Source: a virus
Direction: 5' to 3' (one strand)
DNA length: 64,000 nucleotides
Virus record (IMG/VR): IMGVR_UViG_3300049459_000229
Location: 1-64,000 of that record
Below, one piece after another: positions 3,289 through 45,149 of the stretch. A model generated the notes under the pieces. That model saw nothing but the letters and a program-made list of their open reading frames with translations, made no database searches and was not told the DNA's origin. How positions within the stretch are numbered: position 1 is the first letter of the stretch; every line of letters starts with the position of its first letter. Both the position numbers and the translations under genes were made by a program.

Positions 3289-3304
3289 TGGCACAGAAAT
3301 TGCT
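3289..3304 (+). promoter_or_regulatory. sigma54 -24/-12 consensus site, antiparallel to adaptor-gene promoter
   Basis: TGGCACagaaaTTGCT; the opposite strand reads TGTGC-CACAAT (extended -10-like). Confidence 0.7.
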
Positions 3305-3309
3305 TGAAT

Positions 3310-3342
3310 AAAAGAAAGGCCGCCTCTCGGCGGCCTTTCTTT
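3310..3342. terminator. Bidirectional intrinsic terminator
   Basis: AAAGAAAGGCCGCC-tctc-GGCGGCCTTTCTTT. Confidence 0.85.
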
Positions 3343-3454
3343 AGGCTGTACGACCAACAACTGGGATGGGATGGCCGTTCTTCATATGCCACTCCATGCC
3401 GATCCGGGCGCAGGCCAGGCGGACAAAGAAGACCATCGGCTTGAGCTGGGTCAT
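3341..3454 (-). CDS. Small hypothetical protein (37 aa)
   Basis: MTQLKPMVFFVRLAC...; ATGA overlap with upstream stop; ends at terminator. Confidence 0.45.
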   Translation of the reverse strand: MTQLKPMVFFVRLACARIGMEWHMKNGHPIPVVGRTA

Positions 3455-3732
3455 GCCTGCACCGGCGTGAAGTCGACGTAGAAGGTGTCACCGGCCTTGT
3501 ACTTGCCGAGCAGGTCAGGATTGCTGACGTACATGGACAGGTTGGCCGACGGCGTCCAGCGGGCGAACGAGTTGTTCTCGTCGCTGCCGTCAGCCGGGTA
3601 GCCGTCCGACTTGCAGACCGCACGGAACTCGAGGTTTTCGCCGAGGACCGCACTGTTCGGATCGGACGAGTTCATCAGGCTCTGGCAAACACCCGAAACG
3701 ACCATCTTGGCGCGCATGGACGGGGCGCTCAT
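3451..3732 (-). CDS. Hypothetical phage protein
   Basis: 93 aa, coupled to 3729..4070; FARWTPSANLSMYVSNP...GDTFYVDF resembles a common small phage family. Confidence 0.75.
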   Translation of the reverse strand: MSAPSMRAKMVVSGVCQSLMNSSDPNSAVLGENLEFRAVCKSDGYPADGSDENNSFARWTPSANLSMYVSNPDLLGKYKAGDTFYVDFTPVQA

Positions 3733-4070
3733 GCCGATGCCTTGTCAGCAGCCGGCGCGACACCAGCCTGGGCGACGGCATCTTCCACCGGCAGCTTGCC
3801 GTTGGCGATGCGCTGGGCGTGCTCGGCGGTGCGCTCGCGCTCCTGGCGGGCCAGCTCATCGGCGGCGTTCTGGTCGGCGATCTTCTGCAGGTCTTTCTCG
3901 TTCGGGTCGTCGTCCGGGTTGGCGCAGCGCTTGATGCTCGGCTGGTTCAGGACCCAGCTGGTCAGCTCGGCACGCGTGGCCTTGCCCGGCTCGAAGCGGG
4001 TGCCGGAAATGGGGTCGGGCAGGGGAAAGCTGCCTTCATTGCGCAGCCAGACGCGGGGGGTTTCAGCCAT
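3729..4070 (-). CDS. Hypothetical protein after capsid gene
   Basis: 113 aa, SD AAGGAG, own promoter-like TTGCTC-N17-CACAAT. Confidence 0.75.
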   Translation of the reverse strand: MAETPRVWLRNEGSFPLPDPISGTRFEPGKATRAELTSWVLNQPSIKRCANPDDDPNEKDLQKIADQNAADELARQERERTAEHAQRIANGKLPVEDAVAQAGVAPAADKASA

Positions 4071-4139
4071 GATGGGCTCCTTAGTTGTGGTGAGGATATT
4101 GTGTCACGGAAAATGACACAGAGCAAGTTGTTTGCCGTT

Positions 4140-4170
4140 AAAAGAAAACAGCCCCGAAGGGCCGTTTTCT
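4140..4170 (-). terminator. Intrinsic terminator after major capsid gene
   Basis: AGAAAACGGCCC-ttcg-GGGCTGTTTTCTTTT on minus strand. Confidence 0.8.
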
Positions 4171-4184
4171 GGTGGTGCTGTCGC

Positions 4185-5411
4185 TTACGCGATGACCAGG
4201 CGGGTGAACGGGGTCAGCTCCGCGTCGCCAAAGGTGCGGTACACCTCCTGCGACCAGTGCATCACCATCATCGAGCTGCGGCGCAGGATGAATTCCTCGG
4301 TCGCCTGGTATTCAGCTTCGGTGTTCGACACCGAGGTGATCGCCTTGCGAGCGTCCAGGCCCCAGACTTCGCCGGCCGGCACCGGGCCGCCTTGCGTGGC
4401 CGGGTCGACGATGAAGAAGGTCACGTCCTGGAAGTCCAGGTTGGTGACGCGAGCCTGCGCTTCGATGATCGGCAAGCGGTTGTCGTAAGCCGACAGGCCC
4501 GGACGGCCGGCGCGGTTTTCGATCTTCAGGTAGGTGTCGATGTCGCAGATCGCGTGCGTGATCTTGCGCGACTTGCGCTTGTCGGTCAGCCATTTCACCC
4601 AGGCCTTGTGGGTCATCACGCCGCCGGTCGCGACGGAGTCGTACGAGGTCGAGGTCACGGTCGGCACGGTGCCGATCACCATGTCGTTGTCGCCGACGTA
4701 CAAACTCGAGATGTAGTTGTAGACGCGCTGGTCTTTCTCGATCTCCTGGTAGCGCTTGACGGTCATGGCCAGCAGATCCAGGGTCTGGGTCTTCATGGCC
4801 TGCGCCGACATCTCGATACCGATACCGTAGGTCGGCAGACGACGCACCTTGTCGCTGGTAGTGATCTGCAGGATGGTCGGGACCATCGCCAGCTGCGAGA
4901 CGCGCTGCGCCTTGGCCTTGGTCGGACCTTGCTCGCCCGGGATCGTGTAGTTGATCAGCGGCTGCTCGAAGGTGTCGCCACCGATCGAGGTCTTCTGGGC
5001 CACCATGCTCTCGAACACCTGAGTGTCGGTGGTGCGGTCGACGTCGACGGCAGCTTCGATCGCGGCGATCAGCGCGGCCGGGAACAGGTTGCGCGACTGC
5101 GAGCCGTAGGGATTACCCTTCTGCTGCACGTTGGTCGAGCTGGCGGCGTCGAAGCCACTTTTGCCTTCCAGGATGTCGGCGACGATCGGAGAGCGCAGGC
5201 CGAAAGGGTTGTTGCCCTTCGGCGTGATGATTAGGCCTTCCGAGGCGCACAACTGCGCGAAGACCGAACCCTTCGAGGTGTCGACATCCGCCTGGAACTT
5301 CGAGTTCAGGTATTGCGGAACCGACTTCTGCTCCGCTTTGGCAGCTGCGTACACCGCCGCATCGACCTGGATGTGTTCGGAGTTGCCGTCTTTATTGATG
5401 AAAAATGCCAT
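4185..5411 (-). CDS. Major capsid protein
   Basis: Start reassigned to MAFFINKDG (5411), 408 aa; follows protease, scaffold and decoration genes; followed by a terminator. Confidence 0.85.
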   Translation of the reverse strand: MAFFINKDGNSEHIQVDAAVYAAAKAEQKSVPQYLNSKFQADVDTSKGSVFAQLCASEGLIITPKGNNPFGLRSPIVADILEGKSGFDAASSTNVQQKGNPYGSQSRNLFPAALIAAIEAAVDVDRTTDTQVFESMVAQKTSIGGDTFEQPLINYTIPGEQGPTKAKAQRVSQLAMVPTILQITTSDKVRRLPTYGIGIEMSAQAMKTQTLDLLAMTVKRYQEIEKDQRVYNYISSLYVGDNDMVIGTVPTVTSTSYDSVATGGVMTHKAWVKWLTDKRKSRKITHAICDIDTYLKIENRAGRPGLSAYDNRLPIIEAQARVTNLDFQDVTFFIVDPATQGGPVPAGEVWGLDARKAITSVSNTEAEYQATEEFILRRSSMMVMHWSQEVYRTFGDAELTPFTRLVIA

Positions 5412-5416
5412 TTTGA

Positions 5417-5965
5417 TTAGCTCCCGACGCGGGTGATAACGATGGTGGTGCCGGGAGCCCCGGTACCGACTGGGCCAAGCGATACGACGCGCCAGGCATG
5501 TGCGGACAGCTTCATCTGGGCGGCGGCGGCGGTGAGATCTGCCGGGACAGCGCCCAGTTGTTGAGTGGCCTTTACGACTTTCGGGTAGGCGGTGGACATC
5601 GCCACGCCCTTGGCATCCTGGGTGCCGGCCACGACGTAGTCGCCGACCGCGATGGTGCCGGTGCCTTCGGTCGCCTGCAGGCCGTTGGCGGTCACGTAGA
5701 TTTCCTTGGTTTCGCGGACGCCGCCGATGGTCCAACCATCGGAAGTCGCAGCTTCGACCGAAACGATCTGTGCTTCGATGACGTCGCCGGCGGCGCAGAT
5801 GTCATATTGCGATTCGCCGACCAGCTTGACGAATTTGCTTTCTTCCAGGTAGGTCATGGAACCGCCGGTGCCCGGGACGCCGCCGACCGTGCGGGACGCG
5901 CCCAGACGGACGACCATGACGTCGGGAGTCGGCCCCGTCGGAGTGATGTAGTGTGCTTTGGACAT
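5417..5965 (-). CDS. Head decoration/cement protein
   Basis: 182 aa, G/T/A-rich beta protein between scaffold and capsid. Confidence 0.65.
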   Translation of the reverse strand: MSKAHYITPTGPTPDVMVVRLGASRTVGGVPGTGGSMTYLEESKFVKLVGESQYDICAAGDVIEAQIVSVEAATSDGWTIGGVRETKEIYVTANGLQATEGTGTIAVGDYVVAGTQDAKGVAMSTAYPKVVKATQQLGAVPADLTAAAAQMKLSAHAWRVVSLGPVGTGAPGTTIVITRVGS

Positions 5966-5976
5966 GGTGCGCCCCT

Positions 5977-6603
5977 TTATTTAACGAGAGAGTTTTCCAC
6001 TGCCGCGGCAAACATCGGATTGACGGTGGCCTTGGTGTTGGGTTTTTCTTCCGGCGACGCCACGGCTGCGACGCCGCCGACACGGAACTGCTTCTTGTGG
6101 ATGCCGTCAATGCGCTTGAATTCATCGACGATATTGGCCGAGGTGTATCCGGCTGCGATGTCGGCCGTACCGCCCAGTGCCACCAGCTTCTCACCGACCA
6201 CTGCGCGCAGCGTCTCTGTCAGGCTGTCGGCCAGGCCAGCCTGCGCCTTGAAACCTGCAGCTTCGACTTGCGATGCCAGCAGCTTGGTGGTCAGGTCCGA
6301 GACTTCCGCTTTCAGGTGCGAGACCAGAACGGACGAGCCGGCGTCTTCCGCGGTCACGGTACCAGCAGCAGCGGCAGCGGACGCACCAGCTTCACCTGCC
6401 GGCGGCGTGGTAGCAGTCACTGCGCCGGTAGCGGCGGCGCTCGACGCGGCAACTGCACCGGCGTCAGCAGCGCCGGGCGCGGCGGTCGCGTCAGCGCCCG
6501 GATTGCCCGGCGGATTGGCTTCCGGTGCGGTCGCCAGTGCGGCAACCTGCTCCTGAGTGCCGCCTGAAGCAAGGCAGGCGATCTGTGCGGCGTTAAGTTT
6601 CAT
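5977..6603 (-). CDS. Capsid scaffolding protein
   Basis: Start MKLNAAQ (6603, SD AAGGA); Ala/Pro low-complexity region plus coiled coil; between protease and decoration gene. Confidence 0.65.
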   Translation of the reverse strand: MKLNAAQIACLASGGTQEQVAALATAPEANPPGNPGADATAAPGAADAGAVAASSAAATGAVTATTPPAGEAGASAAAAAGTVTAEDAGSSVLVSHLKAEVSDLTTKLLASQVEAAGFKAQAGLADSLTETLRAVVGEKLVALGGTADIAAGYTSANIVDEFKRIDGIHKKQFRVGGVAAVASPEEKPNTKATVNPMFAAAVENSLVK

Positions 6604-6624
6604 TTCAGCATCCTTTTGAATGAT

Positions 6625-6657
6625 GGCAATTATTGGGCACGGATTTTGCTTTGTCAA
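6625..6657 (-). promoter_or_regulatory. sigma70-type promoter of scaffold-capsid operon with embedded antiparallel sigma54-like site
   Basis: Minus strand TTGACA-N17-AATAAT; plus strand GGGCACggattTTGCT at 6635-6650; GGCAATTATTG half-operator. Confidence 0.7.
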
Positions 6658-7454
6658 CGACTTTTCGCTGCGGCAACAGCCTGATCGAAAGTCTGAACTT
6701 TCTTGACCAGGCCGGCGGTCACCGCGCGCTGGCCAAGGAACGTCCGGCCCTTGCCCATGTGCTCACGCACGTGGCTGGCGGACACGCCCAGCATCTTGCC
6801 GACGTGGTCTTCGAACAGACCAGCGACGTCGTTCACCTGGCTCTGCATCTCAGCCTTGGCGGCTTCCGACAGCGGCTCGTACGGGTTGCCCAGCATCTTG
6901 AATTCGCCTGAACGCACGACAGTCTTGTCAATGCCCTCGGCCTCGAGCTTGCGGTGGGTTGCGGTGTGGATCTGGACGGCGCCGATCGAGCCGGCCACGC
7001 CCATCGGGCTGATCGACAGGTTGTCGGCGGCGCTCATGGCCCAATAAGCGGCAGAAGCGCCGACGGTGCTGATGTGGCCGTCGATCGGCTTGACCGTCTT
7101 GATCTGCGTGATGTAGTCGGCTAGCGGCTGCGCGCCACTGGCGGCGCCGCCGCTGGAGCGGCCATCGAGCAGGATGCGCTTGACGTCGCCGTCCATGGCG
7201 GCTTGGGTCAGCGCAGACTCAATGTCGGCATAGCCCGTCACGCCGAAGAACGACAGCCAGCCGGCATGGCCTTCAATCAGCGAGCCGCTGATCGGGATGA
7301 TGGCCAGGTTGCCCTGCTTCTGCCAGGTCTTGGGCATGTCAGGGCTGTCGCCACCGCGCGCCAGCAGTTCCTGCGCCATGACCTTCACGCTGGCCAAGGC
7401 CTGCAAGTAGACTTCGAAGCTCTCTTCCGAGCCGGCCCAGAAAATCGGGATCAT
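6654..7454 (-). CDS. Prohead protease, S49 (SppA/ClpP-like) family
   Basis: SSGG, GASAAYW, GSIG and RSGEFK motifs of S49 peptidases. Confidence 0.9.
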   Translation of the reverse strand: MIPIFWAGSEESFEVYLQALASVKVMAQELLARGGDSPDMPKTWQKQGNLAIIPISGSLIEGHAGWLSFFGVTGYADIESALTQAAMDGDVKRILLDGRSSGGAASGAQPLADYITQIKTVKPIDGHISTVGASAAYWAMSAADNLSISPMGVAGSIGAVQIHTATHRKLEAEGIDKTVVRSGEFKMLGNPYEPLSEAAKAEMQSQVNDVAGLFEDHVGKMLGVSASHVREHMGKGRTFLGQRAVTAGLVKKVQTFDQAVAAAKSR

Positions 7455-9040
7455 TTTTGCGGTCCTTTCGGTTTGCTCGGGGCGTCAGATTTCTGGCCCT
7501 GCTGGCCGGCGCCCTGTTTGTTGCCCAGAGGCGACGCTTTGCTGTTCGGATTGGTCGGGTCGGCAGACGTGCCGTCGCCAGCAGCACCCGCGGCGCCGCC
7601 TGCGGCCGGCGTGTAGAAGCCGGTACCGGACAGCGGCGTGAAGCCGTCCGGCGTCATCTCGCCAGTCAGCTCGAGCGATGCCTCGTCGTCGGTCAGGAAA
7701 CCCAAGCTCAGGAGCTCGAGGTTGCGAGACTGCTTCATCGATTTGAAGCTCTCGAGCTCCAGGGTCGGGCGCAGGTTGATGTCGTCGTAGAGGAATTCGA
7801 CGGTGACGTCCATGCCGAACAGCCGCACGGCCAGCGTCATCGCCTTGGAGAACATCTCCTGCAGCTTGATGCGGATGATGCCGTTGGCGCTCATCATGAA
7901 GACCATGGTCTCGGTGCTGGCCACATTCTGCGAGCCGGAGCCGTGGCCCAGGATCGACGGCATCACCTTGGCGCCGGTCGAGACCTTTTCGTCGACAATG
8001 CCCTTGACAGTGTCGAAGCTCTCGGCACTGTTGTTGCTCTTCATGTCGACCACGGAGACCGAGAAAAAGTCGAAATGGATGATCGCGTCTTCCGGGTTCA
8101 TCGTGTTGATGACCGACTGGATGTTCGCGAGCGTGCCGTTGATGAATTTATTCAGTTCGATCGTGTCGTGCAGGATCTCCGGCGGGATCCGCAGGCGCAG
8201 CTTTTCTTCGTCGATCTCGACGTCGTAGCGTGGGAACACAGAGCGCTTGCAGATGCGACGCATGTCGTTGGCGAAGTCGGCTGCCGTCAGTACCGGCTGC
8301 ACCGCGGCCTCCATCGGGCTGATCGCGTAAGCGGTCAGCAGGTCCTGGTCGAGCGAGGTGTAGAAGAAGGTCGGGATGTCGAGGTCGATGTACTCGCCGC
8401 CGATCAGCTGCTGGGCCTTGATGCCCTGGCTGTTCTTGTCCTCGACGAAGACCAGCTGGGAGACCGGCACCGGCTGAAACTTGTAGGGCATGCGGTTCTT
8501 GTCCAGCACCAGTTCCAGCGCCATAGCACCTTCGACAAGGATTTCCTTGCCCAGGGCTTCAGCCACCGATCGAAGACTCGAGACTTGGGAAAAACCGGAC
8601 GCGTAATCGGGCATGAAGTCGAACTGGCGCAGGATGCTGTTGGCCAGCGCGGTTGCTTCGCGGTTGAAGCTGCCGTCGATATTGCGCGCCTTGACCCTCC
8701 ACCCTTCCGGAATGCCGACCCGCAGGAATGCGTTGGTGGCCGCCGACAGGTCTGGCGTCAGGCGCGAAAGCGAGCGAATGGCGCCGGGCGTGTTCGCCGC
8801 TGCGCGCGCGGCCGCAGCGATGTCGGTTGTGACGACCCGGCTATCCTGCTTGGTCAACGGCGAGATGACGTAGCTGGTGTTCGGCACGTAGCCGGGCTGA
8901 GTCACCTGCTTGTTCGGCGTCTTCGGCGTCTCTACCAGCGGCATGGCCGGCTGGCTGGTTGTCGGCTGGAGCGTGCCAGTGCCCTTCCCCGCTTTGGGCG
9001 TGGTCAGCTTGGCAAACAGTTGGCGGGCGGCATCGAACAT
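7451..9040 (-). CDS. Portal protein
   Basis: 529 aa between large terminase and protease; low-complexity termini. Confidence 0.85.
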   Translation of the reverse strand: MFDAARQLFAKLTTPKAGKGTGTLQPTTSQPAMPLVETPKTPNKQVTQPGYVPNTSYVISPLTKQDSRVVTTDIAAAARAAANTPGAIRSLSRLTPDLSAATNAFLRVGIPEGWRVKARNIDGSFNREATALANSILRQFDFMPDYASGFSQVSSLRSVAEALGKEILVEGAMALELVLDKNRMPYKFQPVPVSQLVFVEDKNSQGIKAQQLIGGEYIDLDIPTFFYTSLDQDLLTAYAISPMEAAVQPVLTAADFANDMRRICKRSVFPRYDVEIDEEKLRLRIPPEILHDTIELNKFINGTLANIQSVINTMNPEDAIIHFDFFSVSVVDMKSNNSAESFDTVKGIVDEKVSTGAKVMPSILGHGSGSQNVASTETMVFMMSANGIIRIKLQEMFSKAMTLAVRLFGMDVTVEFLYDDINLRPTLELESFKSMKQSRNLELLSLGFLTDDEASLELTGEMTPDGFTPLSGTGFYTPAAGGAAGAAGDGTSADPTNPNSKASPLGNKQGAGQQGQKSDAPSKPKGPQK

Positions 9041-9046
9041 GCCGCG

Positions 9047-9075
9047 AGTATGGCACAGCTCTTGCTAGGCAGCAA
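9047..9075 (-). promoter_or_regulatory. Portal promoter (probably leaderless) with embedded antiparallel sigma54 site
   Basis: Minus strand TTGCTG-N17-CATACT, 6 nt before ATG; plus strand TGGCACagctcTTGCT at 9051-9066. Confidence 0.7.
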
Positions 9076-9089
9076 CCGAGAAATTGCGG

Positions 9090-9120
9090 AAAAGAAAAAG
9101 CCCGCGGATGCGGGCGTTTC
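9090..9120 (-). terminator. Intrinsic terminator after terminase gene
   Basis: GCCCGC-atcc-GCGGGC-TTTTTCTTTT on minus strand. Confidence 0.75.
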
Positions 9121-9209
9121 CTCGGCCGGGAACCCCAGCCCTTACCAGTCGAGAGCGGCCCGGCTGGCTGAATCTGCACCTTACCGATGCGCAGGCAGAC
9201 TCTACCACA

Positions 9210-10907
9210 TCAGTGCTTGACGCGGAAGCTGCCGAACAGCGGGATGCCGACGAAAGCGATGTCGCGCGACGCGGTCGCCATCAGCTGGCTTGCCACGTGC
9301 AGGTAGCCCAAGGTGTGCATGAAGTGGTCGTTGCCTTCCTTGGATTTCGTCCAGGTGTAGTAGAGCTCCTGGTGCTTGTCGAAGGCCTGGGTGCGCTTCA
9401 TGTCGACCATGTGCAGCTTCCACAGCGTGTCGGTGTGGTCGCCCTGCTCGACCCAGCTGATGGCGCCGGCTTTGTACATGTTCATCACCTCGTCGAAATT
9501 GACGTCGCGGTGGATCTTGGCCTGGTTGATCGGCAGCTTGCCTTCAGCCTCGTTCTTGTCGACCATGACAATCTCATAAGTCGCCAGTTTCAGGCTGCTG
9601 TTGTAGACGGCGCCGTACAGGTTTTTGTCCTGGCCCTGCATCCGGTGCACTAGGTTGGTCTCGGGGAAGGCGTCGACCACGGTGATCAGGACGCGCCACT
9701 TCGCGGCCAGCTCGCGCCGGCGAAGCTCAAGTTTGGCAAGTGGTACCTGCTCGCGGTAGCAGACCAGCAGCCGGTTATCCATCGTACGTCGGCCGATCGC
9801 GATGTGGCAGATTTGACCGACGTCAATGCCCATGGCATGCAGGTCGCCGGTGTGCAGGCTGCCGTTGGTATATTTGCACTTCTCGACGTCGGCGTCGGTC
9901 AGCTGGCTGCTGCCGGCGTCGGCCGTCTCGCCCAGCGCCTGGTTGACAAATTCCGCCCAGGTCTTGTACTTCGTGATCTCGAGGATCAGTGAAGGAATCG
10001 TGACGATCTCCGGCACCTCGAAGGGCGTGACGTAATAGCCGATCGCCTCGAACTGGTCCTGCGGGTTCTCGCAGACCCATTCGCGGTGTTCCGGCGCTAG
10101 GCTGGGTTCTTCGTCGCAGGCCGGGCAGTGCAGGCGCGCCTCGCGCCAGCGCAGCTGGTCGATATTGTGCTTGTTGATGTCGCGGAACTCGCCCGCGTAA
10201 TCCGGAATCTTGACGTGCTTGTGGAAGCTCGGGACGAACTGGGTGCCGCAGTGGTTGCAGGTGCAGGCGCGGCGCATGCGACGCGCGGCCGCCATCTCCA
10301 GCGCGATGCCGCGGCCTTCGGTCGTCGGCGTGCCGAAGCGGCGCGTCAGCTTCCATTTGCTGTGCTTGATGCGCGACTGAAACTGGGCAAGGGTGTCCGG
10401 ATCGCTCCGGTCAACCTCGTCGTGGATCAGCATGTCGGCCGGCACCGACAGCGCGGTGGTCGAGCCGGAGCAGCCGCGCATGTACAGGAGGCTGGTGCCG
10501 ATCGACTTGATGCTGGCGTTGTTCAGGTCCTTGTCGATCGACTCGCGCAAGTCGGGTGACTCGTCGATGATGGGGTCGAGGCGGGTCTTGGTGAAGTTGA
10601 CGGCGTCGTTGGCGAACGGCAGCGTCATGATCACCGAGAAATAGGGCATCACGCGGGAGACCGCCAGCGCGTAGCGCGCCATGCACTCGGACATGCCGAC
10701 CTGGGCGCACTTCTGCACGTACACCGTGCGGCTGGTGTCGGAGATGATGTCCTTCTGGAACTCGTGGTCGACGAACGAGAAGCGGTCGCCCTTGAGGAAG
10801 GTCTTCTCCTCGAGGTAGCGTACGACGTCGTTCAGGTCGTAACTGTTGAACAGCGCCTGCTCAAGGCGCTTCAGGTGCTCGACGAGCGCGGGGTCGGCGT
10901 GGCTCAT
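9210..10907 (-). CDS. terL: Terminase large subunit (lambda GpA-like)
   Basis: KCAQVGMSE Walker A variant, LIHDEVD Walker B, GTPT, CxxC..CxxC zinc insert, GIDVG nuclease motif, NDHFMH. Confidence 0.92.
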   Translation of the reverse strand: MSHADPALVEHLKRLEQALFNSYDLNDVVRYLEEKTFLKGDRFSFVDHEFQKDIISDTSRTVYVQKCAQVGMSECMARYALAVSRVMPYFSVIMTLPFANDAVNFTKTRLDPIIDESPDLRESIDKDLNNASIKSIGTSLLYMRGCSGSTTALSVPADMLIHDEVDRSDPDTLAQFQSRIKHSKWKLTRRFGTPTTEGRGIALEMAAARRMRRACTCNHCGTQFVPSFHKHVKIPDYAGEFRDINKHNIDQLRWREARLHCPACDEEPSLAPEHREWVCENPQDQFEAIGYYVTPFEVPEIVTIPSLILEITKYKTWAEFVNQALGETADAGSSQLTDADVEKCKYTNGSLHTGDLHAMGIDVGQICHIAIGRRTMDNRLLVCYREQVPLAKLELRRRELAAKWRVLITVVDAFPETNLVHRMQGQDKNLYGAVYNSSLKLATYEIVMVDKNEAEGKLPINQAKIHRDVNFDEVMNMYKAGAISWVEQGDHTDTLWKLHMVDMKRTQAFDKHQELYYTWTKSKEGNDHFMHTLGYLHVASQLMATASRDIAFVGIPLFGSFRVKH

Positions 10908-11466: not shown

Positions 11467-11609
11467 TAGATGGTCCCCAGGAATTTGAAGATGTCGCGGG
11501 CGGCGACCGCCAGATTGGCCAGCACCCAGCTGCAGATCATGACGATGACTGTGCCGACCACGGTGATCGCCACCATGACGCTGGCGTTCGGGCTGCGCTG
11601 GATGCTCAT
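11466..11609 (-). CDS. Small membrane protein (47 aa)
   Basis: MSIQRSPNASVMVAITVVGTVIVMICSWVLANL...; one TM helix; overlaps both neighbours. Confidence 0.6.
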   Translation of the reverse strand: MSIQRSPNASVMVAITVVGTVIVMICSWVLANLAVAARDIFKFLGTI

Positions 11610-11893
11610 AGGCCGGCCTTGATGCGGTAGATGGTGCGCTCGCTGCAGTGGGCAGCTTTGGCGGCTGCCTTCACCGGCATGGTCGCCGCGGCGTTGCGGC
11701 GGAATTCGGCGCGCTGTTCGCGTAGCTCTTTGCTGCTGGGGGCGCGCACGAGATCCTCGCGCTTGACGCCCATGCGCGCGAAGGTGCGGCAAACGTAGGT
11801 TTCATTGGTGCCGAGCAGGCGCGCGACCTCGCGGCCGGTGATTTCCCGGCGGCGCCATCGGTCGATGTAGGGTTTGAGGTCGTCGCGTAGCAT
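11606..11893 (-). CDS. Double helix-turn-helix DNA-binding protein
   Basis: TGREVARLLGTNETYVCR and PVKAAAKAAHCSERTIYR, two HTH signatures. Confidence 0.75.
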   Translation of the reverse strand: MLRDDLKPYIDRWRRREITGREVARLLGTNETYVCRTFARMGVKREDLVRAPSSKELREQRAEFRRNAAATMPVKAAAKAAHCSERTIYRIKAGL

Positions 11894-11929
11894 GCAATAA
11901 GTATGCCACGAAGCAAAGTTTTTGCCTAG

Positions 11930-12075
11930 AAACTGTGGAAAATAGGTAAAAATTTTGAAAAATTTCAGAAAATTACTGAAAAATCAGTAACTTATGTGGA
12001 AAGTTATGTAATTTATTTGAAAAGTTTGAAAATGGATTGGATATTTTTGGGGGCCCAGGAGCCGGCGCCGGCCTG
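11930..12075. other. AT-rich phased A-tract region; candidate packaging (cos/pac) site or genome terminus
   Basis: A4-5 tracts about every 10 bp; inverted repeats TTACTGA/TCAGTAA and TAACTT/AAGTTA; then a GC-rich palindrome; upstream of terminase genes at the strand switch. Confidence 0.5.
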
Positions 12076-12227: not shown

Positions 12228-12262
12228 TGGTCCAACCAATTACGACAATTGGTCCAACCAAT
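12228..12262 (+). repeat. 13-bp direct repeat TGGTCCAACCAAT x2
   Basis: Copies at 12228-12240 and 12250-12262, 22-bp period. Confidence 0.9.
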
Positions 12263-12269
12263 CACCACA

Positions 12270-12285
12270 TGGCACGATTCTTGCC
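12270..12285 (+). promoter_or_regulatory. sigma54 -24/-12 promoter, sense to first rightward gene
   Basis: TGGCACgattcTTGCC, about 140 nt upstream of ATG 12423. Confidence 0.65.
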
Positions 12286-12422
12286 CATACGCCGGCATAG
12301 CCATCATCTATCAATAACCAGGTTCTGATTAATAAATGCAACTGTCCAGTATCACAGGTAATTGATAATATGGAGTCTCAGTAGTGCCCATTCATCAGCT
12401 GTTCACCCATAGGAGATACACC

Positions 12423-13181
12423 ATGAAAGCCACCCAATCCCGCGCTGTTGCCATGTCCGATGTGTTTCGCGCTGTCGCCGGTTCCGCCGAAGCGCAATTC
12501 GACCTGATCGCCTGCACGGTCTATTCCGCTGCCTACTCCATCATGCAGGCTGGCAACAAAACCCAGTTCAACAAGCTGGCTGCTGACGCCGCCATGTACG
12601 GCGTCGCTACCACGGAATCACGCAAGCTGGTGCGCGGCGTGCTCGGCATCAAGACCATGAACAGCGCCGCCAAGCACTTCGAAAAGGTGTACTTCGCAAT
12701 CCACGCCACGCTGGCCGCGTTCCCTGCGCCGGAACTGATCAAGGACCTGCCGCGTAGCAAGGACGCGCAATTCGCCATTCTTGACCCGCTGGCGTCCGGC
12801 TACGCGGACCAGTTCACAGCCAATTTTACAACGATCATGCTGACTCCGGCGCGTACCGCTGACGAGCAGGCCGAAGCGGATGCCGCGCGCATCGCCAAGA
12901 AAGCCGAGAAAGAGGCCGAAGCGGCGCGCGCCGCCAAGGTTGCCGAGCGTGAGGCCCGCAAGTCGTTGGACGCCACGATCGCGGCACGCGTGGAACAGGC
13001 AGTGGACAAGGCGACCGCACCCGACACCATGGCGCGCACCGTGGCCGATATGCTGGTGGCCGGTTCGCTGTCGGCTGAGCTCGAAGCCATGCTGATCGAA
13101 GCGGCGCGCACCCGCGAAACCGCCGTGCTGCTGGCGCGTGTCGCCAGCACCGCACCCGAAACCGAAACCGAAGCGGCCTGA
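12423..13181 (+). CDS. Hypothetical Ala-rich coiled-coil protein
   Basis: SD AGGAG then MKATQ; strong codon bias; first rightward gene. Confidence 0.85.
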   Translation: MKATQSRAVAMSDVFRAVAGSAEAQFDLIACTVYSAAYSIMQAGNKTQFNKLAADAAMYGVATTESRKLVRGVLGIKTMNSAAKHFEKVYFAIHATLAAFPAPELIKDLPRSKDAQFAILDPLASGYADQFTANFTTIMLTPARTADEQAEADAARIAKKAEKEAEAARAAKVAEREARKSLDATIAARVEQAVDKATAPDTMARTVADMLVAGSLSAELEAMLIEAARTRETAVLLARVASTAPETETEAA

Positions 13182-13184
13182 ATC

Positions 13185-13615
13185 CCGCGCCCCTACAGGG
13201 GCGCTTATCTAAGCCTATCACGGCTTAGATAAGCGTCACTGCGCGCGCCCCTACACAACGCTAGGGACCAGCGCGCGCACCGTCGGATTGCTTGCTTGGA
13301 CAGCGTCTATTCGCGTTCTCGCAGGCGGTATCTTCGGAACCCGGTCTATAACAACGTGCCTACCTGAAACCCGAATCCGTGAATTCGTTTCGGTATTGAT
13401 TCGTCCCGTCTTTTCGGTGCACGTGCCCTTATCGCTTCGCCCTATACCGGAATCGGCAGCAGGACGGCCATGGTAGTAAATAACGGGCTTAGAAAGCCCG
13501 GCAGCGATGAGCTGAGCCGCTTTGGCAAGTGGTGGCGCCTTTCCCGGCGCGAATAGGGAAAGGAAATACCTTGCAGACTGGCTCGGACCGTTGTTACGGT
13601 CCGTTTCGGGTTGCA
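13185..13615 (+). ncRNA. Candidate structured non-coding RNA/leader
   Basis: About 430 nt without a credible ORF; at least 7 stem-loops including a 14-bp perfect stem. Confidence 0.35.
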
Positions 13616-13637
13616 CGGCTATTTCTTGGAGAATCAG

Positions 13638-13820
13638 ATGAAAATGACACCATTGAGAATGGCGGCGTTTCAATTCGCAGCCAGTGCCGGATATACAGGC
13701 TATGAGGTGCGGCTAGCTGAAAGCAAACGTGGCAGCGCTTACGATGTGTTTGTACGCATGCCCGGCGCCGTACGTGGGAAGAAAATAGGCGCAATTCTGC
13801 TGCGCATGGTGTATCCATGA
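13638..13820 (+). CDS. Hypothetical protein
   Basis: SD GGAG, MKMTPLR; coupled to next ORF. Confidence 0.6.
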   Translation: MKMTPLRMAAFQFAASAGYTGYEVRLAESKRGSAYDVFVRMPGAVRGKKIGAILLRMVYP

Positions 13821-14119
13821 GCAGGAAGACAATTTCGGTTCCAATAAAAACGGACCTAAAAATTAAAATGTCAGAATTAATTAAAATTCTGCCAAAACCG
13901 CATCCCTGTATCATCCCTCAGCCAGCGATAGAAACGCGTTCCCGCCTGTTCGATCCTGAGATTATTGAGGTGCCGAAACGCAAAAAGCCTGGCCGTGTCA
14001 GGCAGGTAGAGAAAGGCACGATGAATATCGCGATGCCTGAATTGCGTAAAGGCACGATGAATCGTCCGGATAAGTCGCAGCAAATCACCAAATTAACTTT
14101 CGCCTGGAGTGCAGCATGA
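13817..14119 (+). CDS. Basic hypothetical protein
   Basis: ATGA-coupled; AT-richer; internal duplicated KGTMN (AAAGGCACGATGAAT x2). Confidence 0.55.
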   Translation: MSRKTISVPIKTDLKIKMSELIKILPKPHPCIIPQPAIETRSRLFDPEIIEVPKRKKPGRVRQVEKGTMNIAMPELRKGTMNRPDKSQQITKLTFAWSAA

Positions 14120-14286: not shown

Positions 14287-14293
14287 GAATTTC

Positions 14294-15034: not shown

Positions 15035-15059
15035 GGCAAGCTCCTGTAGTTGAGCTAGA

Positions 15060-15545
15060 ACTATACCATAGAATTCGTGTGCGCCCAAGGGTCTCTCATA
15101 GTAGGGCCACCTCACCAAAAGTAACTCTATATTTCAGTAAAAATTTTCTGTTCCTGTAGAGGGGGGTGGGGGGTAAATTCGTGTTTTTCAAAAGTACGTT
15201 TCTGTACCCTTATTTCTTCTCCAGCAAAAATCTCAAATTGGGGGGGGGGGGGTCTCTACGGAAAACGGCCCTCTAGATTACAACTTAACCCTAAGGTAAT
15301 TCCAGAAAACACGCAAAATTACCTACCCTCAAATAAGTGAAATGTGAGGTTGTGGTAAGTTACCTGTAAGGTCATCCGCGCATTTAAGTTACAAATTGCA
15401 ACTCTGCTATCACTATAAGTGAAACTGTAAGTTGCTTGGGTGAAACATTCTGAATTACCAGATTCTGCCACTTATTCTGTGCTCTTATTTTCCGAAAATT
15501 CCAGTGCCTCGTCCGATCTTTAATTTTTACAGTTCACTTAAATCT
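15060..15545. other. AT-rich divergent intergenic region with G-tracts and iteron-like repeats; candidate origin/early promoter region
   Basis: G6TG6 at 15161-15173, G13 at 15240-15252, ATAAGTGAAA x2, inverted TTCACTTA. Confidence 0.45.
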
Positions 15546-15716
15546 ATGTTCCCTCTATTCAAGCGCATCACCCTCAAGGACGTTCAAAGACAGGACATCG
15601 CTGAGCTCGAACTCGCCCTGCACAACGCCCAGCTCAGCCTCGAGCGGCAGCAAGCCGACGTCGCCCGCCTCCAGACCTCCCTTGCCCGCCTGAAAGCCGA
15701 ACATGCGAACCCGTGA
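15546..15716 (+). CDS. Small coiled-coil protein
   Basis: MFPLFKR start; first ORF of early array. Confidence 0.7.
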   Translation: MFPLFKRITLKDVQRQDIAELELALHNAQLSLERQQADVARLQTSLARLKAEHANP

Positions 15717-30875: not shown

Positions 30876-30876
30876 C

Positions 30877-32765: not shown

Positions 32766-32766
32766 T

Positions 32767-35170: not shown

Positions 35171-35171
35171 A

Positions 35172-39719: not shown

Positions 39720-39858
39720 TGAAGGCCTGCGGCGCCGCCGGCGGCTTTGCAGCCTCCAGTCGGGCGGCTTCGGCGGCGGCGACGGCGGCAGCTTCGGCGG
39801 CCGCCGTCTCCTCCAGCTTCTGGTTGGTCGCTTCCGCGAGTTTTTGCGCGTCGATCAT
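39703..39858 (-). CDS. Small Ala-rich protein (51 aa), last gene of inverted island
   Basis: MIDAQKLAEATNQKLEETAAAEAAA...; TGATG overlap with upstream gene. Confidence 0.55.
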   Translation of the reverse strand: MIDAQKLAEATNQKLEETAAAEAAAVAAAEAARLEAAKPPAAPQAFIKIRP

Positions 39859-41096
39859 CAGTTGTCCGTTGCGGTGAAGTAGATGGTCCGGAATACCTGC
39901 TCGCCGGTGGCGAACGTCAGCGGCAGGGTACAGGTGTTCGCGCCGGCGATATCGAGGCTGCCCAGCTTGACGATGCCGCTACCACCTTGCGTGATCGGCG
40001 CGGCCAGCGAGGTGACGCCGACCGGTGTCGGCGCCTGGACGGAAGCCAGCGTCGTGCTGCTGTACTCCAGGTCGCTCGAGACATCGATCGCGTAGAAGCG
40101 CTGATCGTCCGGATCCTTGGCGAAACTCCACGACCTGTCATCGGCCAGCGCGAAGTGAATCGTGCGGTCGATCTGCTCGCCGTTGTTGAGCAGGATGCGC
40201 AGTGTGCAGTAGTTGTCGAAGCCGGTGGTCAGGTTCAGGCCGCCGATCTTTACCACGATCAGACCACCCTGTGGCGACGGGCCTTCCAGCAGCGTCACGC
40301 CGTTGGTCAAGGCGGTCACCGATTTGATCGTGGTGCCGCTGTCGGCAAGGTCGCGGGTCACATCGCCGATGTAGTAGAGCTTGTCGGCCGGGACCTTGTT
40401 GATGGTCCACTTCTTGTTCTTCAGGTAGGGACCATTCGGCAGCAGCTTGGGCGAACTCTCGGTCCCGAACAAGACGACGCGCGAGCCGCCGGCGAAGACC
40501 GCGGTGCGGCTGGCCGGCACGACCACGCTGTTCGGGATCGAGCCGCTGGAGGCGGCGCCCGGCGAGAAGGCGCCTGCGCTGACCAGGGTTGCGCCTGGTG
40601 CGTTTGCGTTGACTGGTGCTGCGCCGCCGGTTGCGCCGCCGGCCGTGAATACCGGGCTGCTGGCCAAGGTCGCGCCTGGCGCGCTGGAGGACGCCGATGC
40701 TGCGCCGCGCGTCAACACCGACACGCTGGTCAGGGTCGCACCCGGCGCGCTGCCGGCGGCTGCACCGACTGTCATCACGATCGGTGCTGGCTCCGACAGG
40801 AACAGACCGGCGGCCGGACTGTACTTCTTGACCTGCATGGTCGCGTTGTAGACACCGTCCGGCGCGCCGACAAAGCTGAGCGAGCCGTCCTCATAAACAG
40901 TCATCGTGCCCTGGCTTGGCCAGGCGGTCATCGTGCCGCAGTAGCGCGTGCCGACCGGGTCGCCGGCCTCGACGTCGTTGTTCAGCGAGCCTGCCAGCGG
41001 GAAGCCTGTCGGCAGCTCCGACGCCAGCATGCCGACGTATGGAATGCCGAGGACGACCTGTCCGCTGGCGGTTTTCTGGTTCAGGTTGCGCAGCAT
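39858..41096 (-). CDS. Virion fibre/adaptor-like protein with two tandem adaptor domains
   Basis: KVPADKLYYIGDVTRDL and KDPDDQRFYAIDVSSDL domains, each ending G-E-Q-x-x-R-T-I; three APGATL repeats. Confidence 0.65.
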   Translation of the reverse strand: MLRNLNQKTASGQVVLGIPYVGMLASELPTGFPLAGSLNNDVEAGDPVGTRYCGTMTAWPSQGTMTVYEDGSLSFVGAPDGVYNATMQVKKYSPAAGLFLSEPAPIVMTVGAAAGSAPGATLTSVSVLTRGAASASSSAPGATLASSPVFTAGGATGGAAPVNANAPGATLVSAGAFSPGAASSGSIPNSVVVPASRTAVFAGGSRVVLFGTESSPKLLPNGPYLKNKKWTINKVPADKLYYIGDVTRDLADSGTTIKSVTALTNGVTLLEGPSPQGGLIVVKIGGLNLTTGFDNYCTLRILLNNGEQIDRTIHFALADDRSWSFAKDPDDQRFYAIDVSSDLEYSSTTLASVQAPTPVGVTSLAAPITQGGSGIVKLGSLDIAGANTCTLPLTFATGEQVFRTIYFTATDN

Positions 41097-43126: not shown

Positions 43127-43135
43127 GTCTGGCCT

Positions 43136-44659
43136 TTATGGGAACTGAACCGGAACCCAGGTGTTCGAGTTCGGGATGGTGATTGTTTTCGGGGTCTTGC
43201 TGCCGGTGTAGATTTCGCTGACCGGTGCGACTGTGACCGTGCACGCGGCATCCTGCGGCCGGCGCGTCAAGGTGTACGCGGTGCCAGGCGCCGGCGCCGT
43301 CGAGAACGGCGCATCAACCGTCACCCGCTTGTACGAGCCTGCTGCTGTAGTGGCGCCTGCAGCGGACATGACCGTCTCCGCATCGTAGGTGGTGATAGTG
43401 CGGGTTTCACCGTTGATCGTGAGCGTGCTGCCGACGTAGATACCGTTGATCTCGCTTTCACCCTCTCCGGCGTTTCCGTAGGGGAAGGCGATGACCGTGG
43501 TGGTCGACAGGCCCGTGTAATTTCCTTGCGCGTCCTTCTTGCTGTTCGTGTACCCGACGTAGGTCCACGGCGTGACGCAGGTGACTTCGCACGACCAGCC
43601 GGTAGGCGTCTCCTGCACGTTGCGGAAGGTCAGGTCGATGTTGATGCCGCCCGCCTTGTGGACAGCCGGATCCTGGTCACGGCTGAAATTGCTGAAGCAC
43701 GGCCAGCCAGTGCCGATCCGGAAGGTGCCGAACGGATAGCCGCGCAGGATTTCGACCAGGCGCGCTTCGCCGTGCTGGCCGTCATTCCAGTAATACGCAA
43801 ATGCGCGCCCCGATTGGCGCAGGGCGGCGATCATGGCGTCGCTCTCTGCCATGGTCGCGAAGTTGTCGTTGCGGCCCAGGCACCAGCCGATCCAACGAAC
43901 CTTGTTGGCCTGGTTGGACACATAGGCAATCGCGTTCAGGTAGTCCCACGACGAGCCACCGCCGTCTTCCGGCGCAAGCTGTGGGGCCGTAGCCTGGGTA
44001 AATGTCTGGTCGGTGCCATTCCACATGGCCAGGCCGATAGTCGACTTGCCGCCATTCCAGCGCGGGCGGTCCGGATACAGCGCGGCGAACAAGTCATAGA
44101 GGCGCAGGCCGAACGAAGCCGTGCCCCAACCACCCATCGAGCCACCAGTCAGGCAGACGCCGAGCTTGTCGGCGATCGGCAGCGTATCGAGCGCGTACTT
44201 GTACATCGCTCTGTACCGCCGCTCCTCGAACAGGTGCAGTTTCCCGTCGGGCATGACGAAGCCCATGTGGAAAGCCTCCTTCTTCGCGCTGGCATCGTTG
44301 TACCACTCATCGTTTGGCCGCAAGTTGATGCGGCTGTGGTCGTATGCGATGCAAGCACTAAAGCCGAAGACCTTGCGGTTGTCGTAGTCCCGGCCGCCGA
44401 AGGTCGGCGAGGTGCCGCCCATGGTCATGAAGCCGTCGACCGGTACGCGGAATTGGCGCCCGGTGGTGTAGTTGGGACCACCGGACCCATGCAACTCGAC
44501 GACGAACGGCTTGGTGTTCCATTCGGTCGTGGTTGGGTAGCCGCCGGTGTCCGAAAACACCGTAACCTTGGTCGGATCGAAATAGATCGACGGGCCGGCG
44601 CGCCCCGCATAAATCGGCTGGCCGCTGGCGACCGTATAGCTGTCAACTGGGCGCGTCAT
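43136..44659 (-). CDS. Alpha/beta-hydrolase (esterase-like) protein
   Basis: LHGSGG oxyanion motif, TGGSMGGWG nucleophile elbow, G-R-N-D and WNDGQH completing a putative Ser-Asp-His triad. Confidence 0.75.
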   Translation of the reverse strand: MTRPVDSYTVASGQPIYAGRAGPSIYFDPTKVTVFSDTGGYPTTTEWNTKPFVVELHGSGGPNYTTGRQFRVPVDGFMTMGGTSPTFGGRDYDNRKVFGFSACIAYDHSRINLRPNDEWYNDASAKKEAFHMGFVMPDGKLHLFEERRYRAMYKYALDTLPIADKLGVCLTGGSMGGWGTASFGLRLYDLFAALYPDRPRWNGGKSTIGLAMWNGTDQTFTQATAPQLAPEDGGGSSWDYLNAIAYVSNQANKVRWIGWCLGRNDNFATMAESDAMIAALRQSGRAFAYYWNDGQHGEARLVEILRGYPFGTFRIGTGWPCFSNFSRDQDPAVHKAGGINIDLTFRNVQETPTGWSCEVTCVTPWTYVGYTNSKKDAQGNYTGLSTTTVIAFPYGNAGEGESEINGIYVGSTLTINGETRTITTYDAETVMSAAGATTAAGSYKRVTVDAPFSTAPAPGTAYTLTRRPQDAACTVTVAPVSEIYTGSKTPKTITIPNSNTWVPVQFP

Positions 44660-44662
44660 GCT

Positions 44663-45085
44663 TTATGCCGGCGTCGGGAACGCGATCGAGCTGGCGGCCA
44701 GCGTGAAGGTGCCGGCGGTCGTGCTCACGTTAGAGCCGAAATCGTCGACGGCGATCAGCTCGTCGGTCGAGGACGCGCCGCCGCGCCGTTTGTAGTAGAC
44801 GGCCTGGCGCGCGGTGATCGTGCTGTTCGGCCAGGTGACGGCGCCGAAGTTGATCGTGTTTTTGTGGTTGGTCGTGTCCTTGGCGAGGGTCACGGCGACC
44901 GGGATGCCGCCTGCGGCGTAACCGGTGCCTGATACTTCGCCGGTCACGCTCGAGCGGAAAGCATGGGTGCCTGCGTTCGGCGTGTAGGTGGCGTCGACCA
45001 GCATCACGTAGAAGGTGTCGGTATCGAGGTCGATGTTGCCGCGAAATACCTGATCGAGAAAGCTGTCGTAACCGGTCGAGGCCAT
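44663..45085 (-). CDS. Small virion fibre-type protein
   Basis: Start MASTGY (45085); IDLDTDTFYVMLV..YTP..EVSGTGYAAGG..VTWPNSTITAR..DFG. Confidence 0.75.
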   Translation of the reverse strand: MASTGYDSFLDQVFRGNIDLDTDTFYVMLVDATYTPNAGTHAFRSSVTGEVSGTGYAAGGIPVAVTLAKDTTNHKNTINFGAVTWPNSTITARQAVYYKRRGGASSTDELIAVDDFGSNVSTTAGTFTLAASSIAFPTPA

Positions 45086-45120
45086 GGTAGGTCCTAAAAA
45101 TGAGATGCCAGAATGCAAGA

Positions 45121-45149
45121 ATTCTGGCACGCTTCTTGCTGGATGTAAA
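45121..45149 (-). promoter_or_regulatory. Promoter of inverted island with embedded antiparallel sigma54 site
   Basis: Minus strand TTTACA-N17-CAGAAT; plus strand TGGCACgcttcTTGCT at 45125-45140. Confidence 0.7.

Follow-up and report, generated by a model that had tools for sequence, protein, structure and literature searches.

The phage genome and its late genes

The DNA analysed here, hereafter the window, is the first 64,000 bases (positions 1 to 64,000) of IMG/VR record IMGVR_UViG_3300049459_000229, a complete siphophage genome of 87,830 bp with direct terminal repeats and 63% G+C. Nearly all of its late gene blocks, and of those of its relatives, have within or beside the promoter an asymmetric box that matches TGGCAC-N5-TTGC, the -24/-12 consensus of sigma-54 (RpoN). 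The present study concerns these boxes, their fusion with sigma-70-type promoters and the factor that may read them.

The source is soil: the stretch is present in four rhizosphere metagenome runs, and no RNA run is found among the holders listed. All genes between positions 1 and 11893 lie on the minus strand, with the major head protein at 4185-5735, the protease at 6654-7454, the portal at 7451-9040 and TerL at 9210-10907. An island of fibre and adaptor genes, also on the minus strand, occupies 39.7-45.1 kb, and the genes for RdgC, a helicase, an exonuclease and DNA polymerase A are on the plus strand. The last 24 kb of the genome contain tail genes, a gene for a 2363-residue protein in the position that the tape-measure gene has in relatives, and a lysis cassette with a holin-like gene and an endolysin gene. 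In tblastn searches with the major head protein, the nearest annotated phages, Vibrio phage SHOU24 and the Pseudomonas phages PMBT3 and Lana, share only 26-32% identity, and a search of the phages collection gave no near-identical DNA. IMG/VR holds a graded series of relatives, with portal identities from 95% down to 47%. Eight of them, taken whole (G001-G008), form with the genome of the window (G000) a clade set of nine genomes, 765 kb in total.

The boxes and the promoters in which they lie are listed below. A box is called forward when it points towards the unit that it precedes and backward when it points away from it; classes I and II are the two layouts described further on.

3285..3290, minus strand: promoter of gene 2777-3262, with a -10-like hexamer CACAAT, a TG two bases before it and no conserved -35
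3289..3304, plus strand: box S1, TGGCAC-N5-TTGCT, class I, backward relative to the head-tail genes
4123..4136, minus strand: weaker forward box GGCAA-N5-TTGC, whose TTGCTC is the -35 of the promoter of gene 3729-4070
6629..6657, minus strand: sigma-70-type promoter TTGACA-17-AATAAT of gene 5977-6603, score 11/12, identical in four aligned relatives
6635..6650, plus strand: box S2, GGGCAC-N5-TTGCT, backward, filling the spacer of this scaffold/capsid-unit promoter
9047..9075, minus strand: portal promoter TTGCTG-17-CATACT, whose -10 ends 6 nt before the portal ATG, no ribosome-binding site
9051..9066, plus strand: box S3, TGGCAC-N5-TTGCT, backward, within the portal promoter
11606..11893, minus strand: gene 15, first gene of the terminase operon, encoding a 95-residue protein with two helix-turn-helix (HTH) units
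11894..11907, minus strand: forward box GGCAT-N5-TTGC, abutting the gene 15 ATG and containing the -10-like CATACT of gene 15
11913..11926, minus strand: another weaker forward box, GGCAA-N5-TTGC, which covers the -35 region upstream of gene 15
12270..12285, plus strand: box S5, TGGCAC-N5-TTGCC, facing gene 12384-13181
45121..45149, minus strand: fibre-island promoter TTTACA-17-CAGAAT, conserved in four aligned genomes
45125..45140, plus strand: box S4, TGGCAC-N5-TTGCT, lying backward within the promoter that serves the fibre-island operon (44663-45085 and further downstream)
73189..73202 of the genome, outside the window, minus strand: lysis-cassette box, forward, about 55 nt from the ATG

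A preliminary description of the window had quoted the five boxes S1 to S5, all on the plus strand, and the letters given for them are indeed found at these positions. As it had also stated, S1, S2 and S3 point away from the units that they precede, and the site at 12270 is sense-oriented, facing gene 12384-13181. The lysis-cassette box, a sixth intergenic site, and the three weaker minus-strand boxes at 4123, 11894 and 11913 had been overlooked.

Abundance of the boxes and fit to the sigma-54 site

The window has seven matches to the core of the box, GGCAC-N5-TTGC; 100 shuffled sequences average 1.32, and the richest of them has six (0/100 reach seven). At two mismatches the 16-mer is not enriched in the window (26 found, 21.4 expected). 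The spacing is exact: the whole 87,830-bp genome has eight core matches with five bases between the halves, none with four and one with six, and six of the eight are intergenic. In the nine genomes 57 core matches are found; the reversed pattern, a control run in the eight relatives only, gives two. Non-coding DNA, as left by a crude gene-calling script using GC3 (G+C at third codon positions) and ribosome-binding sites, makes up 19% of the sequence and holds 41 of the 57 matches; the corresponding binomial p is about 5e-18, a value that counts the many orthologues as independent sites and so overstates their independence. Partly owing to miscalled small open reading frames (ORFs), 15 of these 41 sites were scored as divergent or convergent.

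The earlier statement that no full match lies in coding DNA is right for the 16-mer and wrong for the core, which occurs in coding DNA at 8024 (plus strand) and 55783 (minus strand), in both cases with a C before GGCAC:

8023..8038, plus strand: core match within the coding sequence of the portal (CGGCAC...), also found as coding sequence in G001, no T before GGCAC, probably not part of the box system
55782..55797, minus strand: core match in coding DNA (CGGCAC...), probably due to chance

The flanks of the core differ between coding and non-coding matches in the whole clade set. Among the 41 non-coding sites, a T precedes GGCAC in 30, a purine follows it in 38 and A or T follows TTGC in 32; the figures for the 16 coding matches are 5, 6 and 9, respectively. 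The boxes have GG and GC exactly 10 bp apart in TGGCAC-N5-TTGCW, with the flanks of the sigma-54 consensus. The N5 letters vary from site to site. In both orientations the box is asymmetric, unlike the site of a dimer; a palindromic reading was dropped, since at all sites the halves show the same difference from each other.

The likeness to known sigma-54 sites extends to individual sequences. The 17-mer at the lysis site of G001 is identical to the E. coli OS28 (hypA) site, which has the top score with the position-specific scoring matrix and is the strongest of the intergenic in vivo E. coli sites in Table 1 of Bonocora et al. 2015 (PMC4591121). Substitutions tolerated among orthologous boxes also occur in the sites of that table (PMC4591121). 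Full matches are about 17 times as dense in the phage (four in 88 kb) as in a Sphingomonadaceae metagenome-assembled genome (MAG), where 11 are found in the 4.2 Mb outside the phage-like contig. This MAG, which holds a contig related to the phage, has an rpoN gene (E = 3.5e-65); such binning is weak evidence for the host.

Two layouts with sigma-70-type promoters

Every box touches a core promoter, at the spacer and -10, at the -35 or at the start codon, and does so in either orientation. The sigma-70 hexamers named in the preliminary description are present: TTGACA-17-AATAAT with 11 of 12 consensus bases, TTGCTG-17-CATACT, TTTACA-17-CAGAAT and a TG-extended CACAAT. Spacers of 17 bp are found at S3 and S4 and a TG-extended -10 at S1, and the hexamers, like their distances to the genes, are conserved.

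Two layouts account for most sites. In class I, the box is backward and the gene strand reads AGCAA-N5-GTGC-C; its TG belongs to an extended -10, and its last C opens -10 hexamers such as CACAAT, CATACT or CAGAAT. As counted by a script over the 41 non-coding sites, this layout is found at 18 of the 19 backward sites, at two of the seven forward ones (with weak hexamers) and at eight of the 15 sites with ambiguous gene calls. S2 is offset by two bases from this register and lies within the 17-bp spacer of TTGACA/AATAAT. In class II the box is forward: TTGC is directly followed by T(T/G)GAC(A/T), 17 bp and TAnAAT. This second layout is seen at five of seven forward sites, at none of the 19 backward sites and at one ambiguous site; four genomes have it at the lysis cassette, G007 and G008 at the scaffold-capsid promoter, and G008 also before the tape-measure gene. 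No forward site lacks a sigma-70-type promoter of its own. The antiparallel arrangement put forward earlier does not hold as a rule, for the lysis-cassette site and the scaffold-capsid site of two distant relatives are co-oriented with their genes and abut the -35. In the late promoters the register of the box to the -10 is fixed; the -35 is absent at S1 and consensus at S2. At the S1 promoter, a block AAGCAA-N5-GTGCCAyAAT is conserved, and the -35 region holds merely the T-run of a terminator.

At the portal gene and at gene 15, the -10 hexamer stands 6-9 nt from the ATG across relatives, and no ribosome-binding site is seen. These short, conserved distances make the sigma-70-type promoters look real. 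Since the coding sequences start 6-9 nt after the -10 with no ribosome-binding site, the mRNAs of both genes are probably leaderless, as judged from the DNA, which hints at a host where such mRNAs are common.

Conservation among related phages

The preliminary description would have been refuted by relatives that conserve only the TG-extended -10 half of the box. This is not the pattern found: in orthologous late promoters, the two halves and the exact spacing between them are preserved in relatives with as little as 47% portal identity. S1 is found before the orthologous gene in all nine genomes and in L010, with one substitution each in G007 and G008 that spares the GG and the GC. S2 is also present in 9/9 genomes, as a class I box in seven (G000-G006) and as a forward box abutting the -35 in G007 and G008. 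S3 has the class I layout in five genomes; in the other four, a GGCAA-N5-TTGCT variant is shifted onto the -35. S4 is a strict box in four genomes (G000-G003) and a variant one in G005 and G006, while G007 has two boxes there. The lysis site is present in most of the nine genomes, and at the position equivalent to 4123..4136 G006 has a strict forward box. In the aligned clade genomes, the substitutions seen among orthologues are GGCAT, ATGC and TTGCC/G, and GG and GC are invariant.

The box before gene 15, TGGCA(T/C)ACTT(A/T/G)TTGC, precedes the ATG in all nine genomes (with one extra base in G004 and G005) and in L181, the contig binned to the Sphingomonadaceae MAG. In L010, the box of the gene 15 promoter has the opposite orientation, and L011 has none. 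S5 is private to the genome of the window and missing from the three relatives that could be aligned there. In PMBT3, with 26% identity in the head protein, the first 45 kb contain no exact box and 11 matches with one mismatch (20.5 expected); the system therefore does not extend that far.

Sigma-54 machinery and orientation of the boxes

Activation of sigma-54 requires an enhancer-binding ATPase, and no PF00158 domain scores above the cut-off in the phage or in five relatives. A sub-threshold Sigma54_activat match at 63348-63440, restricted to a Walker A region, recurs weakly in four of the five relatives searched. It falls in a 70-residue ORF (63360-63572) that contains little beyond the Walker A motif and stands directly before the gene for an ATP-dependent DNA ligase; as a 70-residue, Walker-A-only ORF, it was rejected as an activator. 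Pfam searches of the phage genome gave no match to the sigma-54 DNA-binding domain or to sigma-70 region 2. The profile for T7-type RNA polymerase had no match in the phage genome nor in control genomes, and is hence uninformative.

No conserved upstream activator site was found either, and the 13-bp boxes next to S5 are unique to the genome of the window. The elements that surround the boxes are the following:

3311..3342: symmetric terminator hairpin of the preceding unit, with a 14-bp stem, -25.6 kcal/mol and z = -5.6 on the plus strand; a minus-strand terminator is also predicted
9100..9115, minus strand: predicted terminator after the TerL unit, met about 35 nt beyond S3 in the sigma-54 direction
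12228..12262, plus strand: a 13-bp box present twice, as exact copies 22 bp apart, directly before S5 and nowhere else in the window in exact form

In their orientation, most boxes do not resemble promoters. Ahead of S1, S2 and S3 lie terminators or the 3′ ends of other genes, and co-orientation with a downstream gene is limited to the lysis site, S5 and a few sites in relatives. Aimed as they are at gene ends or terminators, the backward sites would be poor promoters. Between the end of S2 and the protease stop codon there are 3 nt, and the hairpin at 3311..3342 starts 7 nt past S1 in the sigma-54 direction. An antisense RNA made from the site at 3289, one of the possibilities raised earlier, is unlikely, as transcription would run into this 14-bp hairpin; at S2 and S3 the predicted folds of RNAs made in the sigma-54 direction are no better than those of shuffled sequences. 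S4, placed between divergent genes, faces RdgC as well, at a distance of 110 nt, but the RdgC gene has a conserved promoter of its own.

What the boxes do resemble is the occlusion sites known from E. coli: each overlaps the -35/-10 footprint of a promoter, and the GC, with C at -12, is present at all sites.

Gene 15, a candidate phage reader

Gene 15 opens the terminase operon. Its protein matches Pfam HTH_23 with 27.1 bits (cut-off 24.6) and, weakly, a PHROG family annotated as late transcriptional activator. An AlphaFold2 (AF2) model has a predicted local distance difference test score (pLDDT) of 92 and six helices. Neither a profile search against Protein Data Bank (PDB) sequences nor a Foldseek search with the model gave anything significant; the fold neighbours are weak rows only, from bipartite, Tc3-, mariner- and SoxS-type monomeric DNA-binding domains. 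The family counts 85 proteins and is confined to large contigs of 82-94 kb. Across 12 aligned members, the recognition helix of the second HTH is invariant. A contig encoding a homologue with 31% identity has one core match in 64 kb and none near the gene. The gene 15 protein may be proposed, from its sequence, as a candidate phage reader of the box.

Boxes in unrelated phages

The box consensus recurs in arrays on unrelated phage contigs of 32-63% GC. One unrelated phage fragment of lower GC content (G013; 31% GC, 106 kb, estimated 29% complete) has, in its first 16 kb (L198), five forward TGGCAC-N5-TTGCT boxes within 6 kb, at 292, 2539, 3240, 4867 and 5942. All five stand 45-50 nt ahead of a gene, and a terminator-like hairpin precedes at least three of them. 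In this 106-kb fragment, neither a gene 15 homologue nor an enhancer-binding protein was found.

A scan of IMG/VR with the composite of box and -10, AGCAA-N5-GTGCCAYAAT, returned at least 116 stretches, almost all with a single match, a result indistinguishable from chance; a few of the matches led to the unrelated phages with arrays. When 115 of these loci were rescanned, 23 had at least two sites, and 37 extra sites were counted among the matches listed, where a hand estimate gives about four. No gene 15 homologue was found in the ten richest array loci, which are short. Five IMG/VR loci of 32-38% GC (L145, L138, L173, L110 and L103) have a common trio of boxes in about 70 bp, with two of them on the same strand and the third on the opposite strand.

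A possible brake on late promoters and its rivals

From the sequence, enrichment, conservation and geometry of the boxes, we infer both the identity of the binder and the direction of its effect: host sigma-54 holoenzyme would park on the late promoters and compete there with sigma-70 polymerase, a tentative reading to which a probability of about 0.4 may be given. The boxes would be the operators of a late regulon made of the terminase operon, the portal-protease, scaffold-capsid and head-tail units, the fibre island and the lysis cassette. Each late unit would have a sigma-70-type promoter read by the host RNA polymerase, with the 16-bp asymmetric box built in or against it. The sigma-54 holoenzyme would bind this box as a stable closed complex that does not fire without an enhancer-binding ATPase. 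Parked there, it would cover the spacer and -10 in class I or the -35 in class II, so that the sigma-70 polymerase would be excluded and the late genes held down. Release could result from titration of sigma-54 by phage DNA copies, from a phage protein, or from a host activator firing the parked enzyme; titration by genome replication may be proposed as the route.

Several observations argue for such a brake. A box that touches promoters in various ways and in either orientation is to be expected of an occlusion operator rather than of a promoter. Moreover, S2 lies in a near-consensus (11/12) promoter of a late gene, where a brake would therefore be needed. The density of the box compared with that in the Sphingomonadaceae MAG counts in favour of sigma-54 as well, as do the arrays on unrelated phage contigs, in whose available stretches no gene 15 homologue was found. 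The proposal of the preliminary description, a parked RpoN repressor, thus stands at the level of sequence (the consensus with its flanks, the overlap with sigma-70-type promoters and the conservation), while binding and repression remain predicted; a link of the late switch to the nitrogen or motility state of the host, which it had added, is unsupported. In a more specific version, scarce sigma-54 would be a titratable lock on every late promoter, providing a replication-counting switch with no phage repressor. With one genome copy the promoters would be off; after replication, the six to eight sites per genome would exceed the sigma-54 supply and the promoters would open. The gene 15 protein, whose own promoter is boxed, may displace the lock and sharpen the switch. 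This version is rather unlikely.

Other observations weigh against a sigma-54 brake. The fixed register of both layouts would be expected of a phage factor that contacts RNA polymerase, and an occluder needs none. Of the five bases of GGCAC, three serve in class I boxes also as the TG of the extended -10 and the first base of the hexamer; therefore, part of the match to sigma-54 is explained by the sigma-70 promoter. The portal promoter of L010 keeps its -35 and -10 with an N3 spacing in the box, and that of L011 is kept with GT in place of GG. The regulon is exactly that of the late genes, the usual signature of a phage-encoded late regulator, and a candidate for one exists in gene 15. Finally, we know of no phage in which a low-abundance, non-essential host sigma factor serves as sole brake.

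These points lead to the strongest rival, in which a phage-encoded factor, at best the 95-residue gene 15 monomer, reads the box, activates or represses the late promoters and regulates its own gene, the likeness to sigma-54 being coincidence or mimicry. The fallback of the preliminary description, a phage regulator reading the same motif, accordingly keeps its weight, the more so as the gene 15 start codon abuts a box in nine genomes and L181; we consider it possible, if somewhat doubtful. Two HTH units, with weak fold similarity to bipartite DNA-binding domains, would suit an asymmetric two-part site one DNA turn long. Only late genes are in the regulon, and the two fixed registers have opposite orientations (18/19 backward sites in class I, 5/7 forward sites in class II), for which the position and orientation classes of MarA/SoxS-type monomers offer a parallel. 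The S1 promoter, consisting of box and -10 with no conserved -35, recalls the activator-dependent late promoters of the P1 Lpa type. The confinement of the gene 15 family to contigs of 82-94 kb and its invariant second recognition helix point in the same direction. However, a chance match to sigma-54 at nine core and some three flanking positions is improbable, even with a large number of phage motifs having been scanned; an activator has no place in the spacer of a consensus promoter such as that of S2; the contig of the 31%-identical homologue has its single core match in 64 kb away from the gene; and gene 15 could equally be the DNA-recognition partner of the small terminase. The arrays of unrelated phages, where no gene 15 homologue was found, also speak against this rival, weakly since these loci are short.

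Host sigma-54 might also be the reader with another outcome. If the boxes were working promoters driven by host enhancer-binding proteins, the forward ones would express the lysis cassette and a few other genes, and the backward ones would give short antisense or interfering transcripts. Forward sites do stand at sensible distances from ribosome-binding sites and genes (about 55 nt to the ATG at the lysis cassette, about 25 nt at 69662 in G006), as do the five forward boxes of the 31%-GC sequence, each 45-50 nt before a gene, and the GenBank record of Pseudomonas phage YuA annotates three active -24/-12 promoters in its structural module. Yet neither an enhancer-binding ATPase in the phage or five relatives nor a conserved upstream activator site was found, most sites are backward, S1 would fire into a 14-bp hairpin 7 nt on, the gene 15 box would start transcription inside the ORF, and each forward site has a sigma-70-type promoter of its own. 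We regard this as improbable for the system as a whole; productive sigma-54 transcription may take place at forward sites only. Still less probable is binding of the holoenzyme for a further purpose, as a head-on roadblock reinforcing the upstream terminator or as a sponge draining host sigma-54 during replication. S1 and S3 directly follow terminators and aim at them, S2 is 3 nt from the protease stop, and the density of full matches (four in 88 kb, compared with 11 in 4.2 Mb of the bacterial MAG) would suit a sponge, but the base sharing with the -10, the exact -35 register, the forward boxes and the box at the gene 15 start codon would be left unexplained. The least credible possibility dispenses with a separate reader: the boxes would be a by-product of a promoter vocabulary of TG-extended -10s starting with CA and TTGC-type -35s 10 bp apart. 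The GTGCC of class I is indeed TG plus two bases, related half-boxes (GGCAAAC, AAGTTTGC) occur at other promoters, and the 16-mer lacks enrichment at two mismatches. Against this, the spacing is exact (eight N5, no N4, one N6), the AGCAA at -26 to -22 has no sigma-70 role and is nevertheless conserved in 9/9 S1 orthologues, and forward boxes keep GGCAC with no -10 adjoining it.

Other features of the window

Next to box S4, a perfect 8-bp inverted repeat, GCCAGAAT-N6-ATTCTGGC, lies at 45107-45129 and overlaps both the fibre-island -10 and the GG of S4. It is mostly conserved in four aligned genomes, with one base changed in G001, and could be a second operator or a 5′ hairpin. A second family of promoters is found on the plus strand, made of TTGACA, nine bases, AAGTTTGC and a -10-like hexamer. 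It is seen at 45186-45216, before the RdgC gene, where it is conserved in eight genomes, and at 53270-53300, before gene 53367. In reverse, the copy at 53.3 kb comes within one base of being a box (GGCAA-N5-TTGA).

At 11930-12055, where the late operon transcribed leftward and the rightward genes diverge, lie AT-rich short repeats of the GAAAA/TTTTC type. Runs of similar repeats are kept upstream of gene 15 in relatives, and two sigma-70-like sites are predicted on the plus strand of this stretch, which might serve as a cluster of early promoters, as an origin or as a packaging region. Two longer regions are devoid of called genes. That at 13182-14115 (934 nt) contains hairpins and a direct repeat. 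In that at 15035-15702 (668 nt), the first 540 nt or so are AT-rich, and two long G runs are present, one split (GGGGGGTGGGGGG) and one of 13 G; these are slippage-prone tracts in a control region.

Comparison with known systems and significance

Some phage late promoters, those of P1 (Lpa), T4 (MotA) and Mu (C), depend on an activator made by the phage, which binds at -42 or between the -35 and the -10; MarA, SoxS and Rob are monomeric activators with two HTH units. The present phages share with these types an element found at late promoters only and in register with the -10, an S1 promoter devoid of a -35, an asymmetric site used both ways and the availability of a two-HTH protein. Unlike here, none of those elements resembles the sigma-54 consensus, and gene 15 has no significant match, in sequence or in fold, to any of these proteins.

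Repression of overlapping sigma-70 promoters by the sigma-54 closed complex, through competition for binding, has been described in vivo and in vitro for E. coli argT, chaC, mdfA and patA, in those cases always with a C at -12 (Schaefer et al. 2015, PMC4551910). The phage boxes resemble these overlapping promoters (PMC4551910) in having a -24/-12 site with C at -12 inside the sigma-70 footprint. The E. coli cases, as presented there, concern scattered host genes with no common register, whereas here a whole late regulon carries the boxes, in two exact registers that are conserved in the clade, and repression is predicted from the DNA. In sequence and flank preferences, the boxes are also like classical enhancer-dependent sigma-54 promoters such as those of hypA, glnA and pspA, as given in PMC4591121. 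They differ from them in that most face away from genes, that no activator gene or site was found and that the forward ones are fused to a sigma-70 -35.

Among phages, the closest parallel is YuA, likewise a siphophage with no RNA polymerase of its own, for which sigma-54-type promoters are reported at virion genes (Ceyssens et al. 2008, as cited in PMC10914365); its GenBank record (NC_010116) annotates three -24/-12 promoter regions in the structural module. Unlike those of this clade, the YuA promoters are forward and were active in a promoter trap, and YuA is unrelated. Its first 50 kb, which include all three annotated regions, have no exact core match and 11 with one mismatch (14.9 expected). 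A literature search, with subscription journals outside its coverage, found no study of sigma-54 sites embedded in phage late promoters. The occlusion mechanism is one shown in E. coli, not in phages, and what is particular to the present phages is the base-sharing fusion of sigma-54 boxes with sigma-70 late promoters across a whole regulon.

To our knowledge, how late genes are timed is unknown for most lytic phages that lack an RNA polymerase or sigma factor of their own. Should host sigma-54 read the box, this regulon would be the first in a phage to rely on a silent sigma-54 closed complex, and a role would be suggested for the "non-productive" sigma-54 sites seen in bacteria by chromatin immunoprecipitation (ChIP) and for backward sites in uncultured phages. 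If sigma-54 acts as a titratable lock, the backward sites of unrelated phages would belong to one widespread device. If a phage protein reads the box, it would make with its operator a compact, orthogonal pair with two defined promoter geometries. Either reader is directly testable with short DNA fragments and two purified proteins.

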